Shown here: in pieces, positions 6,001-9,000 of the stretch
Layout: each line of letters opens with the position of its first letter
Numbering within the stretch: position 1 is the stretch's first letter
Source: Escherichia coli
GTDB lineage: Bacteria; Pseudomonadota; Gammaproteobacteria; Enterobacterales; Enterobacteriaceae
DNA length: 64,000 bases
Strand: one strand, 5' to 3'
NCBI RefSeq assembly: GCF_017348835.2
Contig: NZ_CP071375.1
Program-made: the position numbers

Positions 6001-9000
6001 GACGGATGTTACAAAAAATGCAGCGTATGGCGTTGAGATAGAAAGTCTGGTGCTGGAGATAAATGCACCGGCAGCATAATAAAAAAAGAGCCAGCGACTG
6101 ACCTGAAAGAAGACGCTGGCTAAAAGGCCTTATATGTTTGTAGAGACTTATTTTTCACAGACAGCAATGATGCCTGTCAATATATTATCAATATGCGGAT
6201 TGTTTCAGTTACAGATGCTTTATTAAGGAAAAAAACAGCCAGCACTGACTTTCGGTGGAGAGGTGCTGGCTCAGAAGGATAGTTGGATTTCACATGATAC
6301 TTATGCCTGGCGGTATATTTTCTGACAGACAGTGACGGGTGTTGTCAAGATATTGTGTCATTTATAACCTGAATCAGGGGGTGGCCGGAATGTTATCTGG
6401 CATTTTTAGCAGAGCCTGAATGCCATAATCACGGCTCCCGGAGTTGGCCGTCAGTGGGTGACACTGGCGGCTTTTTTGTTTTTCTTTACTTTCATTTTCT
6501 GTCGGCGGTGACGGAGACATACATCAGATGGAAAAAATCACAACAGGTGTGTCATACACCACGTCAGCGGTGGGGACGGGATACTGGTTACTGCAGCTGC
6601 TGGACAAAGTCTCTCCGTCCCAGTGGGTGGCAATAGGTGTGCTGGGAAGTCTGCTGTTTGGCCTGCTGACGTATCTGACTAACCTGTATTTCAAAATCAG
6701 AGAGGACCGTCGTAAGGTGGCGCGGGGAGAGTAGTCGATGAATAAACAATACGAACTGGTTGTAAAATGAATATTTCTAACTGAAAAAACGTTCCATGAG
6801 GTAAGAAAAGGTCACAGGCAATCAATAACAGGACGTGATGAAAGACCCTTGCATTTGTGCGCTTTCTCTTTAGATAGCAGCAGATACTGAAAATCTGAGT
6901 TGTCGGGGAGTCAGGGATACAGCTGTGCAAGAGTTGGTCATTGTGATTCCATTGAAATCCTGTATGCCATGAAGGGCAGGATTTTATGGCTACCTGAGCT
7001 TTGGTGATAGTAAGTTGAAAATTCGCATTTTTTGCTGACATGCGTAACGAGAATCCCATAAGCAGGGAGGACTTAATTCTTCATTAACCCATGCGTTGAT
7101 ATTATGTTTCAGCCGTTGAAGCATCAGCGGTGTTAATGTTGTGGTAATAATATCCAGCGTTTTATGTGAGATCTTACCGTAAGGGTCTGCAAGAATGCTG
7201 CTTGTTGCTTCGTTATTATCTGCCATCAGAAGAAGTAACTCTGATTTAACGTTTTCTGTCATTAGTTGTAAAAATCTTCTGCGCAAACTTTCTTTACTGT
7301 TCATTTATATGGCTTCATTTGTTGTAATCTGCTGCGTCTCAAGGGATATGTTTATGAGAGCGACCATGAGTGTTGGATTATATACCTAACATATCAAGGG
7401 ATTAGAAATCGATAAATCCCCATGAACGAAAAAATAAAATACGGCCTGTCGGCTGCCGTTCTGGCGCTGATTGGTGCAGGTGCTTCTGCGCCTGAAATCC
7501 TCGACCAGTTTCTGGATGAAAAGGAAGGTAACCACACCACGGCATACCGTGATGGTGCGGGGATCTGGACCATCTGCCGTGGTGCCATTCTGGTGGATGG
7601 TAAGCCTGTTATTCCTGGCATGAAGCTGTCAAAGGAAAAATGCGACCGGGTTAATGCCATCGAACGTGACAAGGCGCTGGCATGGGTGGAGAAAAACATC
7701 CGGGTGCCGCTGACCGAACCCCAGAAAGCGGGGATCGCGTCATTCTGTCCGTACAACATTGGCCCCGGTAAGTGCTTCCCGTCGACGTTTTATAAACGAA
7801 TTAATGCAGGCGATCGAAAAGGTGCCTGTGAGGCGATTCGCTGGTGGATTAAGGACGGTGGCAGAGACTGCCGTATCCGTTCAAATAATTGCTACGGTCA
7901 GGTCTCACGGCGTGACCAGGAGAGCGCGCTGGCGTGCTGGGACATCGACAGATAGCAGAATATTTTCCTGAAAAATGACGTTGGCCAACGCGGGTGGATA
8001 ACACGAAATCCTGAAAACTGGTAAAACCTAAGTGAATAAAAGTAAAAACCCCGTTTGTTGGCAGCAAGCGGGGTTTTGTGTTTTCTGACCTTGAGTAAGG
8101 CAAGGGAGAAATTATGGGTAGGGAGGTACTTTCCCTGTGAGGAAGTATAAAAGATTCTTTCTGAGGTTGTCCATTATGAAAGGCATTGAAGTGGAGACGC
8201 CAGCCAGTCTGGATTTAACAAGAGCGGCAGCTTTTGCCATTCGTATTGTGGCCATTGCTGTTCTGGTCTGGGCAATCCGTTGGTGGTGATATGAACCGTG
8301 TTCTGTGCGTGGTTATCATTGTCCTGCTGGTGGCCTGTGGTGCGCTTAGTCTGGGGCTGAATCATTACCGTGATCACGCCATCATCTACAAAGAGCAGCG
8401 CGATAAAAAAGCCAGTGAGCTGGAGCTGGCGAACGCGACAATTACTGATATGCAGGTACGCCAGCGTGATGTCGCTGCACTTGATGCCAGATACTCGAGG
8501 GAATTAGCCGATGCGAGAGCTGAAAATGAAACTCTGCGTGCTGATGTTGCCGCTGGTCGTAAGCGCCTGCGCATCAACGCCAACTGTCCAGGCTCCTTGC
8601 GTAAAGCCCCCATCACCTCCGGCGTGGATAATGCAACCGGTCCCCGACTGGCAGAAGCCGCTGAACGGGATTATTTCATCCTCAGAGAACGGCTGATGGC
8701 AATGCAGAAGCAACTGGAAGGAGCACAGGAATATATCCGTACCCAGTGTATACCGTGATGTTTTGTTATGAAGGTGTTACTGGTAACGTTAAGGTAATTT
8801 AACAAAGAGTCAGTTCCGGACTTTATAGTGTGCTCAGTTCATGGCCAAAAACGATTTCTGTGATAAATATTTTGAATATTATTTACAGGTAAATGGAGTG
8901 GGGCGCATGGATAGAAATATTACAATAGAGTATGAAGTATATGCCCGTATTGTATGGGCAGAGAAGGCAAAAACACGGTAATTCCGTGTGTTGCCATGAT

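Follow-up and report, generated by a model that had tools for sequence, protein, structure and literature searches.

A terminator-like hairpin and a predicted dual-start membrane micro-gene form a mobile cassette at the endolysin-Rz junction of an Escherichia coli lysis operon

Membrane-protein genes between endolysin and spanin genes have a precedent in phage P2, where lysA lies between the endolysin gene K and the spanin genes lysB and lysC. LysA is about 140 aa long and has four predicted transmembrane helices; it is reportedly non-essential and affects the timing of lysis. Neither a hairpin nor a dual start is known for lysA, nor is the gene known to move between phages. Dual starts are found in the holin/antiholin genes S107/S105 of lambda, with its sdi stem-loop, and S21 71/68 of phage 21. 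In these genes the longer product carries an extra N-terminal positive charge, and a stem-loop lies around the upstream Shine-Dalgarno sequence. SymE/SymR and Ldr/Rdl are type I systems with a 5'-overlapping antisense RNA. The slot between R and Rz is a site for cargo: Ant occupies it in Stx phages (PMC8136144), and the LT-II toxin genes are located after the lysozyme gene (PMC3252337). Where the latter paper cites Juhala et al. 2000 and Hendrix et al. 2000, morons are given the layout promoter-gene-terminator and are expressed from the prophage.

We analyzed the interval between the endolysin and Rz genes in a 64,000-nucleotide window of an Escherichia coli genome (Table 1). A micro-gene is located there between a SAR-type lysozyme gene (PF00959) and Rz (PF03245), and the window already holds an S21-type pinholin (PF04971). 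Sequence comparison indicates that positions 8036-8290 are one self-contained accessory cassette inserted in the late (lysis) operon, consisting of a G+C-rich hairpin with its A- and T-tracts, a short leader and a 50-codon gene. Like lysA of P2, the micro-gene encodes a membrane protein in the endolysin-spanin interval, but no sequence similarity between the two proteins was detected, and LysA is larger with more transmembrane helices. The dual-start holins resemble it as small lysis-cassette membrane proteins with an upstream stem-loop; it too has two predicted in-frame starts, of which the first would give a longer product with extra N-terminal positive charge. In contrast to them, its starts are 11-13 codons apart rather than 2-3, its product has one transmembrane helix rather than 2-3, it lies downstream of the endolysin gene, and no match to a holin, antiholin or spanin family was found in Pfam, NCBIfam or PHROGs.

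Table 1. Features of the endolysin-Rz interval and its flanks (window positions)
Feature	Position	Strand	Description
Endolysin gene 3' flank	7956-8035	+	Part of the endolysin module, outside the cassette; kept in all cassettes with this endolysin
Hypothetical antisense RNA, ~100 nt	8034-8137	-	From the promoter-like site to the hairpin; complementary to the leader and both upstream Shine-Dalgarno sequences
Cassette 5' element	8036-8088	.	A-tract 8036-8044, G+C hairpin 8045-8077, T-tract 8078-8088
Leader	8102-8140	+	Shine-Dalgarno AAGGGAGAA 8102-8110 and 8-codon upstream ORF 8114-8140
Small stem-loop	8120-8136	+	AGGGAGG-TACTT-TCCCT; predicted in MFE and centroid folds
Micro-gene, probable full length, 50 codons	8137-8289	+	(V/M)RKYKRFFLRLSI-MKGIEVETPASLDL-TRAAAFAIRIVAIAVLVWAI-RWW
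Promoter-like site	8144-8173	-	-35 TGGACA (8173-8168), 18-nt spacer, -10 TATACT (8149-8144)
37-codon ORF	8176-8289	+	ATG 8176 to TGA 8287-8289; PGAP WP_000675931.1, hypothetical protein; product MKGIEVETPASLDLTRAAAFAIRIVAIAVLVWAIRWW
Putative coupling junction TGA-T-ATG	8287-8293	+	Micro-gene stop, one base (T 8290), Rz ATG 8291
Rz i-spanin gene, 155 aa	8291-8758	+	Pfam Phage_lysis 2.4e-46; PHROG 13
Rz1 lipoprotein ORF	8511-8696	+	Embedded in Rz; lipobox VVSAC

The length of an ORF of this size is uninformative by itself, because 55 ORFs of at least 20 aa occur within 3.3 kb, and the case for the micro-ORF as a gene therefore depends on how its copies differ. Across 17 distinct intact copies, the ORF frame has a pN/pS of 0.11, as opposed to 1.4 and 3.6 in the other two sense frames (pairwise sums over the 17 related sequences; most of the loci were retrieved by a pattern that fixes 36 nt upstream). 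Variable sites at codon positions 3, 1 and 2 number 30, 12 and 5 in the same copies. This substitution pattern indicates that the micro-ORF is a real gene under purifying selection. A minus-strand ORF (8255-8112) has a pN/pS of 0.20 and wobble positions in common with the sense ORF; it was rejected as a real gene, as stop codons interrupt it in distant homologues and neither its start nor its stop is conserved. A second RWW-stop match at 30821 appears to be due to chance, being inside a tail-fiber gene and in a different frame.

A sequence-only reading of this locus had described the ORF as encoding a predicted single-pass membrane peptide, with a stop 1 nt before the Rz start, and had suggested that it could modulate spanin expression or encode an unannotated lysis regulator. 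The position of the stop and the single transmembrane helix, which is predicted, were both confirmed. The ORF is not unannotated, however, since PGAP lists it as a hypothetical protein and the 37-aa peptide matches PHROG 4493 (E = 5.5e-16, residues 1-37 against profile positions 14-54 of 56). Sister forms match PHROGs 1115 and 3246. All three PHROGs are labelled 'unknown function', so that a label is gained but no mechanism. The micro-protein had no match in Pfam, NCBIfam, PADLOC or PDB sequence searches, and no paper on these micro-ORFs was found in the literature.

The annotated ORF exists at 37 aa as that reading had it, but this size is probably that of the shorter of two products. The frame of ATG 8176 is open from GTG 8137, giving 50 aa. 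An ATG or GTG is present 11-13 codons before a conserved internal Met in 11 of the 12 copies examined, and the LT-II copy (L089) has GAG in place of the upstream start codon. After the upstream start there is a conserved x-Y-[KRI]-[KR]-x-[FL]-x-[RL]-[LR] segment, and in 3 of the 12 copies a stop codon lies immediately 5' of this start. The internal Met, ATG 8176 in the window, is conserved across the 12 copies and has its own Shine-Dalgarno sequence (GAGG, 8163-8166). The Arg codon located 3-4 codons before it is AGG or AGA in all 12 copies and creates GAGG or GAGA 7-9 nt upstream of the Met. Other Arg codons across the copies are mostly CGN, and two G+C-rich copies have AGR at this place though all 10 of their other Arg codons are CGN. 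Two conserved in-frame starts, each with a Shine-Dalgarno sequence, and the AGR bias in 12 of 12 copies are consistent with dual-start use, which is a prediction. The gene start is most likely GTG 8137, and the 37-aa form is probably a short isoform from an internal start of the 50-codon gene. The RefSeq start is thus probably wrong, with 37 aa given and 50 aa likelier. A non-coding regulatory role for the invariant 36 nt before ATG 8176 was considered and rejected, because a coding N-terminal extension with an internal Shine-Dalgarno sequence is the better explanation.

The 50-aa product consists of a basic N-terminal helix, predicted to be amphipathic, an acidic linker, a transmembrane helix and a C-terminal RWW. 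AlphaFold2 places helices at residues 3-14 and 25-49, with a pLDDT of about 90 for the transmembrane helix, and substitutions between copies in this helix are conservative I/V/L exchanges. The motifs of the micro-protein are conserved across lineages of 44-63% G+C, and the RWW is kept in copies with no coupled downstream gene (L215, L224). The product is predicted to be a tail-anchored single-pass inner-membrane micro-protein. It has no lipobox, and only RWW follows the transmembrane helix, which sets it apart from spanins. Homology between two of the micro-protein families, A and B, could not be established, as hhalign aligns only the last 8 residues with 42% probability.

The hairpin at the 5' end of the cassette has the form AAAACCCCGTTTGTT-GGC-AGCAAGCGGGGTTTT, followed by GTGTTTTCTG on the plus strand and by TTTTTACTTTTATT on the minus strand. 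Its stem has 15 pairs, including two G-T and six G-C pairs, its loop has 3 nt, and its folding energy is -20 kcal/mol (RNAfold). The pattern AAACCCCG..CGGGGTTT occurs once in 64 kb, as opposed to 0.00 expected from 100 shuffles. A G+C-rich stem-loop directly followed by a U-tract is the structure of an intrinsic (Rho-independent) terminator. Since an A-tract precedes the hairpin, the element resembles such a terminator on both strands, and it looks like a putative bidirectional one. Ten pairs of the basal stem are conserved, 4 of the 10 with compensatory changes, and the upper stems vary in sequence by lineage with pairing retained. The spacing from the hairpin to the first start of the unit is 33-46 nt in every context seen (E. 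coli, G+C-rich metagenome and IMG/VR copies).

The earlier description of a strong hairpin and T-tract between R and Rz, where lambda has none, was accurate. The R and Rz genes of lambda agree with the lack of a hairpin between them. In the Qin prophage of K-12, rrrQ and rzpQ overlap, with no gap and no homologue of the micro-gene, which is consistent with lambda; it also makes K-12 unusable as an annotated reference. The same description had treated the hairpin as a feature of the R-Rz interval, and in this respect it does not hold. The hairpin is the 5' element of the cassette, and it is also found after capsid genes and in baseplate and tail-fiber clusters. Because it accompanies the micro-gene outside lysis cassettes, a role as a pure attenuator of spanin expression is unlikely. 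The comparison between loci indicates that the hairpin travels with the micro-ORF and not with the endolysin, and in annotation it should be read as a part of the cassette rather than as the endolysin terminator. The 3' flank of the endolysin gene has a different distribution. It is kept in ant-carrying variants and is missing from cassettes behind other endolysins. Stx phages, H-19B among them, have this endolysin type and show 85-88% identity over the first ~156 nt of the gap.

The upstream ORF in the leader encodes MGREVLSL, and its TGA overlaps GTG 8137 as GTGA. The leader and the upstream ORF recur in 10 sequence variants from about 80 loci, and in cassettes without an insert of ~25 nt (L048) the main ORF begins at the position of the upstream-ORF start. 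A second Shine-Dalgarno sequence (GGGAGG, 8121-8126), for GTG 8137, sits inside the small stem-loop. The stem is invariant and the loop is variable by lineage. As a result of this invariance the structure, which is predicted by folding, has no covariation support.

The micro-gene runs into Rz at a conserved junction. The arrangement TGGTGGTGA-N-ATG is present in all intact copies, and it is kept before three alleles of Rz and before a 60-aa lipoprotein gene. As in translationally coupled pairs, the stop and the next start lie within a few nucleotides of each other and are conserved in relatives; the conserved stop-1 nt-start junction fits translational coupling to the spanin gene. The endolysin-Rz gap ranges from 289 to 1197 nt with varying contents. 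Of the 82 sampled cassettes with this endolysin, 81 have a membrane micro-ORF from one of three families whose stop is no more than 10 nt from the Rz start, yet the standard description of these cassettes, as S, R, Rz and Rz1 only, omits such genes (PMC8136144).

Comparison of the contexts indicates that the cassette is mobile between phages. It is strongly enriched at the endolysin/i-spanin junction of unrelated phages, where it follows endolysins of at least five families (PHROG 7, 181 and 873; GH108; Peptidase_M15_4) and precedes Rz-like spanins of PHROGs 13, 312 and 214. Near-identical micro-proteins adjoin unrelated Rz families, and in Peptidase_M15 cassettes the micro-gene is apparently coupled to the 60-aa lipoprotein gene instead of Rz. 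Other copies follow major capsid genes (L215, L216) or tail-fiber assembly genes (L218, L231) or sit within a baseplate cluster (L220, L221), and some (L215, L216, L220) have no spanin nearby. As a result, a role in lysis is not required by position. Tandem arrays occur in which one hairpin serves up to four ORFs, and both the copy number and the content of families A, B and C vary between cassettes.

The best explanation appears to be that the cassette encodes a dual-start, tail-anchored protein of the inner membrane, which is expressed late, tunes lysis and passes ribosomes to Rz; we give this a probability of about 0.45. A promoter scan detected no plus-strand promoter-like site within 8045-8176, so the cassette would be transcribed only within the late transcript, which, antiterminated by Q, would read through the hairpin. 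Ribosomes would load at the strong Shine-Dalgarno sequence 25 nt past the hairpin and translate the 8-codon upstream ORF. This translation would open the stem containing the next Shine-Dalgarno sequence, allowing re-initiation at GTG 8137 and giving the long form, and the short form would come from separate initiation at ATG 8176. Ribosomes terminating on the micro-gene would then be handed to Rz. At the inner membrane, the two isoforms may tune the timing or execution of lysis late in infection, an action that would resemble that of holin/antiholin pairs and P2 LysA. In the lysogen, the hairpin may silence the cassette and the spanin genes. Any effect of the micro-proteins on when or how completely cells lyse would influence burst size, and in Stx phages it could also influence toxin release. 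A terminator 5' of a promoterless gene is an arrangement that the lysis-tuning cassette model alone leaves unexplained. A more elaborate proposal, which we consider unlikely, is a mobile lysis-tuning cassette of four parts: long and short forms that oppose each other in a holin/antiholin-like manner, an upstream-ORF/stem-loop switch that sets their ratio, an antisense RNA that ends at the cassette's own hairpin and silences it in the lysogen, and a coupling junction that permits non-polar insertion upstream of the spanin genes. Such a four-part cassette would move between unrelated phages and prefer the endolysin/spanin junction.

An antisense RNA also belongs to a type I toxin-antitoxin-like alternative, in which a toxic membrane peptide is paired with an antisense RNA of ~75-110 nt in an arrangement like SymR/SymE. 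Its promoter would be just inside the ORF, with the -10 over codons 2-5, and the RNA would cover the start region and leader and end at the hairpin. On this view the hairpin would accompany the ORF because the antisense RNA terminates there. As in SymE/SymR and Ldr/Rdl, there is a small hydrophobic peptide, a candidate antisense promoter inside the ORF and an RNA terminator upstream of it; the 50- and 37-aa products each have one predicted transmembrane helix and the size and hydrophobicity of type I toxins (<60 aa), and the unit has a patchy, mobile distribution. The minus-strand site TGGACA-18-TATACT agrees with the consensus at 10 of 12 positions and is the best promoter-like match in a 4-kb scan. 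A -10-like hexamer at +4 to +12 relative to the start codon is shared by 10 of 11 copies; in three (L217, L218, L222) it is a perfect TATAAT. The T-tract of the minus direction, formed by the 5' A-tract, is better conserved than that of the plus direction, and one copy (L219) is terminator-like in the minus direction only. The hairpin-to-start distance stays constant despite divergence of the leader sequence, and the candidate RNA folds at -26.6 kcal/mol with z = -3.3. However, the protein sequence alone gives comparable promoter scores: synonymous recoding yields P = 0.03-0.3 per lineage (about 0.03 by Fisher combination), so that the K-Y-K and L-S-I codons may account for the site. Unlike SymE/SymR and Ldr/Rdl, in which the antisense RNA is more than a prediction, the locus has no promoter for a toxin mRNA in the plus-strand scan and no homology to a known family, and its gene is embedded in an operon and coupled to essential late genes. 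The sharing of one hairpin by tandem ORFs also counts against such a pairing. No toxin or antitoxin family was matched in Rfam, Pfam or NCBIfam. A whole-window Rfam scan gave nothing at gathering score in the interval, and a permissive scan gave only terminator-driven matches at chance level (rimP leader, E = 0.14; RefA9, E = 0.27; ohsC, E = 2.7). Nor was a matching sequence present in the supplements of the Sakai small-gene RIBOseq paper or the EDL933 TSS paper on EHEC. The known EHEC prophage sRNAs (the AgvB/AsxR anti-sRNAs and the Pas sRNAs) were rejected as candidates, being located upstream of the holin gene. On balance, a type I system seems improbable.

The position of the micro-gene could also reflect a dedicated partnership with the spanins, in which the micro-protein would bind to Rz through its transmembrane helix, or to the small lipoprotein that takes the place of Rz in M15 cassettes, and would either hold back or promote inner-outer membrane fusion. 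In this cassette type the gene is always directly upstream of Rz and coupled to it, and it holds this place before three unrelated Rz PHROG families and behind five endolysin families, or before the 60-aa lipoprotein gene in M15 cassettes. The proximity of near-identical micro-proteins to unrelated Rz families argues against a specific helix-helix fit, though. Some copies have no spanin nearby, and the three residues past the transmembrane helix put the periplasm out of reach. We doubt, for these reasons, that a spanin partner is encoded here. Like the morons of lambdoid phages, the cassette adds a gene between neighbors that adjoin each other in related phages; its distribution is likewise patchy, and its slot is also used by Ant (PMC8136144) and LT-II (PMC3252337). 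A lysogenic-conversion moron expressed from the prophage, for example a superinfection-exclusion membrane protein like HK97 gp15, would fit this slot, the variable copy number and family content, and a small inner-membrane product. It has a low probability, as the terminator-like hairpin precedes the gene instead of following it as in a moron, no plus-strand promoter was found, the gene is always co-oriented with and coupled to the next late gene, and PADLOC gave no match. Finally, the unit may act purely in cis, the hairpin ending or stabilizing the upstream message and the ORF serving only to load ribosomes and couple translation to Rz, which has a weak Shine-Dalgarno sequence of its own, with a functionless peptide. 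The junction is conserved before differing downstream genes, every cassette with separated R and Rz retains at least one coupled micro-ORF, and Qin and lambda couple Rz directly to R. A functionless peptide is nonetheless very unlikely in view of the purifying selection on the amino-acid sequence, the motifs conserved over a wide range of G+C contents, and the retention of RWW in copies with no coupled gene downstream.

The conserved leader pattern had 0 matches in species-representative genomes. Among 5426 complete E. coli genomes, some part of the 335-nt interval is present in 2036, and at least 80% of the interval is present in 673.

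In this lambdoid prophage, which lacks stx, a small membrane gene precedes Rz, and the coordinates of the lysis region are collected in the table. The sequence-only reading had placed in the gap between endolysin and Rz a terminator-like hairpin and a 37-aa micro-ORF, and both are found there. The ORF (8176-8289) ends one base before the Rz ATG, as claimed, and the hairpin has 15 pairs, a 3-nt loop and an energy of -20 kcal/mol. The description of the ORF as unannotated did not hold. In O157:H7 TR01, and also in strain PE164, whose prophage is near-identical, PGAP calls it as the hypothetical protein WP_000675931.1; its product matches PHROG 4493, a family without a function label. 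Of 5426 complete E. coli genomes, 2036 contain some part of the interval and 673 contain 80% of it or more.

Features of the lysis region and of the endolysin-Rz interval
Feature	Coordinates	Strand	Remarks
Q, then three tRNA genes, then SASA esterase gene			Start of late region
S21-type pinholin	6528-6734		PF04971
Hypothetical ORF, 90-104 aa	6990-7304	minus	Between pinholin and endolysin genes; WP_000138558.1; PHROG 1853, family without function label
Lysozyme (endolysin)	7422-7955		PF00959; N-terminal signal-anchor-like segment
Interval studied	7956-8290		335 nt, between lysozyme gene and Rz
Hairpin	8045-8077
Strong Shine-Dalgarno AAGGGAGAA	8102-8110		25 nt 3' of hairpin
Upstream ORF, 8 codons	8114-8140		TGA stop overlaps GTG 8137
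Shine-Dalgarno for GTG 8137	8121-8126		Inside predicted stem 8120-8136
Rz	8291-8758		PF03245; embedded Rz1-like lipoprotein ORF
Embedded Rz1-type o-spanin ORF	8511-8696	+	MRELKMKLCVLMLPLVVSAC..., lipobox VVSAC

The micro-ORF evolves as a coding sequence. Extraction of 128 loci with the common leader, most of them retrieved by a pattern fixing the 36 nt 5' of ATG 8176, yielded 17 distinct intact ORF sequences with a synonymous divergence of 0.45. Their pN/pS is 0.11 in the micro-ORF frame versus 1.4 and 3.6 in the remaining sense frames, the pairwise sums not being independent because the sequences are related. Third codon positions have 30 variable sites, first positions 12 and second positions 5. 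The antisense frame, which has its wobble positions in common with the micro-ORF, gives a pN/pS of 0.20; it contains stops in distant homologues and its ends are not conserved. It is therefore ruled out, and the sense frame is the gene.

Searched with a profile, 1.84 billion cluster representatives gave only 32 matching clusters, including divergent metagenome members of 44-63% G+C. An ATG or GTG lies 11-13 codons 5' of the methionine chosen by PGAP in 11 of the 12 copies examined; the window has GTG 8137, giving a 50-aa product, and the twelfth copy, behind an LT-II enterotoxin gene, has GAG. A stop codon directly precedes this upstream start in three of the 11 copies, and a conserved basic segment follows it (e.g., KYKRFFLRLSI, KYKRILLRLT, VYRKTFRLRIS, SYIKTFRLRAS, NYKRFFVRLN). 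The internal methionine is also conserved. Three to four codons before it, arginine is encoded by AGG or AGA in all 12 copies, two of which come from G+C-rich lineages whose ten other arginine codons are all CGN. This bias preserves GAGG or GAGA 7-9 nt 5' of the internal ATG and is read as selection for a second ribosome-binding site, which suggests a dual-start gene with predicted products of 50 and 37 aa. The AlphaFold2 model, built from a 14-sequence alignment, has a short, low-confidence N-terminal helix (residues 3-14), a linker and a confident helix (25-49). It fits a tail-anchored membrane protein, and the charge distribution would put the N-terminus in the cytoplasm.

Followed directly by GTGTTTTCTG and preceded directly by an A-tract, the hairpin has the look of an intrinsic terminator in both directions. 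The window contains one instance of its core pattern, and 100 shuffles gave none. The micro-ORF is also found behind Peptidase_M15_4 endolysin, GH108 endolysin or LT-II toxin genes, and in each context a hairpin with a different stem stands 5' of it. All distant copies share one layout, in which 33-46 nt separate the first start codon from a G+C hairpin that has an A-tract on its 5' side, usually AAAGCNAAA. Ten pairs at the base of the stem are conserved, with compensatory changes in four, and the upper stems are unrelated between lineages with pairing still kept. Comparison of the copies indicates that the hairpin is part of the micro-gene unit. The initial ~80 nt of the interval (7956-8035), which include GGATAACACGAAATCCTG, are instead part of the endolysin module: every gap variant that has this endolysin keeps them, ant-carrying ones included, and they are absent elsewhere. 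Inspection of this segment revealed no convincing ORF or function. The leader, with both Shine-Dalgarno sequences and the upstream ORF, is kept in about 80 loci. The predicted stem at 8120-8136 is invariant and its loop variable, so it is without covariation support. In cassettes without a ~25-nt insert, such as that of comparison locus L048, the main ORF begins where the ATG of the upstream ORF sits.

The gap between endolysin and Rz is a variable site. Across 82 IMG/VR loci with the endolysin type of the window, it measures 289-1197 nt and comes in 47 sequence versions. Of these loci, 81 have a small membrane ORF whose end is no more than 10 nt from the Rz start; the remaining locus is frameshifted. 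These ORFs belong to family A (FDFSKLIREIR...IRWW, PHROG 6632, as in H-19B), family B (that of the window) and family C (MSDKLITLAK..., PHROG 4906), and they come singly or in arrays of up to four, some with an Ant gene and some without. Phage vB_EcoS-569R3 (L003, 690-1176) carries four in tandem, A-C-B-B, behind one hairpin. In H-19B (L004, 2658-2796), the deposited 190-aa Rz appears to start inside the family A region. Outside this endolysin type, family B is flanked by endolysins of at least five families on one side and by Rz-like spanins of PHROG 13, 312 and 214 on the other, near-identical micro-proteins adjoin unrelated Rz families, and the endolysin/family B/Rz-like spanin layout recurs in seven of ten loci of an independent IMG/VR sample.

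The association with this junction is not exclusive. Family B copies occur after major capsid genes (L215, L216), within a baseplate cluster (L220, L221), after tail-fibre assembly genes (L218, L231) and, in Peptidase_M15 cassettes, 5' of a 60-aa lipoprotein. Wherever upstream and downstream late genes are identifiable, the unit points the same way as they do, and its end usually lies 1-10 nt before the next gene. In the Peptidase_M15_4 lysis cassettes (L086, 2616-2798, and about 40 other loci), the micro-gene is putatively coupled by TGA-N-ATG to the lipoprotein (MARKHWTHRMPR...LLVGC..., PHROG 7528, without a function label). The ~2.5 kb downstream showed no Rz-type spanin, and the lipoprotein may be an uncharacterised outer-membrane lysis component. 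Metagenomic phage contig L215 (63% G+C; 2437-3403) has about five tandem small membrane ORFs after the major capsid gene, among them members resembling families B and A that end in VRWW. Its first units are set apart by near-identical copies of a hairpin (CGCCCCGGCAG...CTGCCGGGGCG), at least two in number, and the arrangement resembles a cassette array. In L089-L091 (787-1924), inserted LT-IIA and LT-IIB enterotoxin genes separate a GH108 endolysin from the cassette. The upstream GTG of these copies is mutated to GAG, and in L089 the downstream lipoprotein ORF is shortened to 16 aa.

A promoter scan found no plus-strand promoter-like site between hairpin and micro-ORF, so expression should come from the late transcript. 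In lambdoid phages, terminators are read through by Q-modified polymerase, and such a polymerase would pass the hairpin and transcribe the micro-gene. Translation could then proceed as a relay from the upstream ORF to the GTG start, the internal start and finally the Rz start, which would fix the ratio of long to short form and hand ribosomes to Rz. The hairpin would also be explained if it ended an antisense RNA, running on the minus strand from a promoter inside the ORF (~8137 to ~8036), which would account for its place 5' of the ORF. The minus-strand TGGACA-18-TATACT (8173-8144) is the best promoter-like site within 4 kb, 10 of 11 copies have a -10-like hexamer at +4 to +12 relative to the start codon, and the T-tract in the minus direction is better conserved than that in the plus direction. 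The candidate RNA would cover both upstream Shine-Dalgarno sequences, and its fold has a z of -3.3. However, synonymous recoding gives similar promoter scores from the amino-acid sequence alone (P = 0.03-0.3 per lineage), which is the main weakness, and the supplements of the EHEC TSS and EHEC RIBOseq studies yielded no expression evidence for it. We regard such an RNA as unlikely.

The anatomy of the cassette, as read from sequence, is well supported. With no more than moderate confidence, we propose that the micro-protein has an accessory lysis function at the inner membrane. Four features point that way: the unit is enriched where endolysin and spanin genes meet, the gene has a probable dual start whose long form gains a strongly basic extension, a predicted stem-loop encloses the Shine-Dalgarno sequence, and the product is a predicted membrane protein. 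No holin or spanin family includes it. In position its closest analogue is P2 LysA; in design it is closest to lambda S107/S105 with the sdi stem-loop. The unit is placed as a moron would be but lacks the promoter-gene-terminator layout; its peptide is like that of a type I toxin, for which the antisense RNA is only a candidate. We class it as an accessory small membrane gene in a phage late operon. A literature search found no published description of these micro-ORFs, and a Stx-phage survey gives the lytic cassette as S, R and Rz/Rz1 only (PMC8136144). The architecture appears not to have been described previously.

The site of the minus-strand ORF between pinholin and endolysin is a second cargo slot within the lysis cassette; K-12 Qin has co-oriented ydfR in its place. 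The Rz1-type ORF is without annotation in near-identical RefSeq records, which give only a "lysis protein" (Rz). Between Rz and a PerC-family gene (9224-9538), the segment 9040-9200 is very A+T-rich with long T-runs, and its several overlapping short hydrophobic ORFs are probably a product of base composition alone. An Rfam STnc100 sRNA match (138 bits; 3816-4006, plus strand) occupies the place of stx in Stx phages, just past the Ile/Arg/Arg tRNA genes and ahead of the SASA esterase gene; on the opposite strand, PGAP has a partial hypothetical pseudogene there. Far from the studied region, a full-length Rfam match to the cspA 5'-UTR thermoregulator (159 bits) is located at 53030-53452 on the plus strand.
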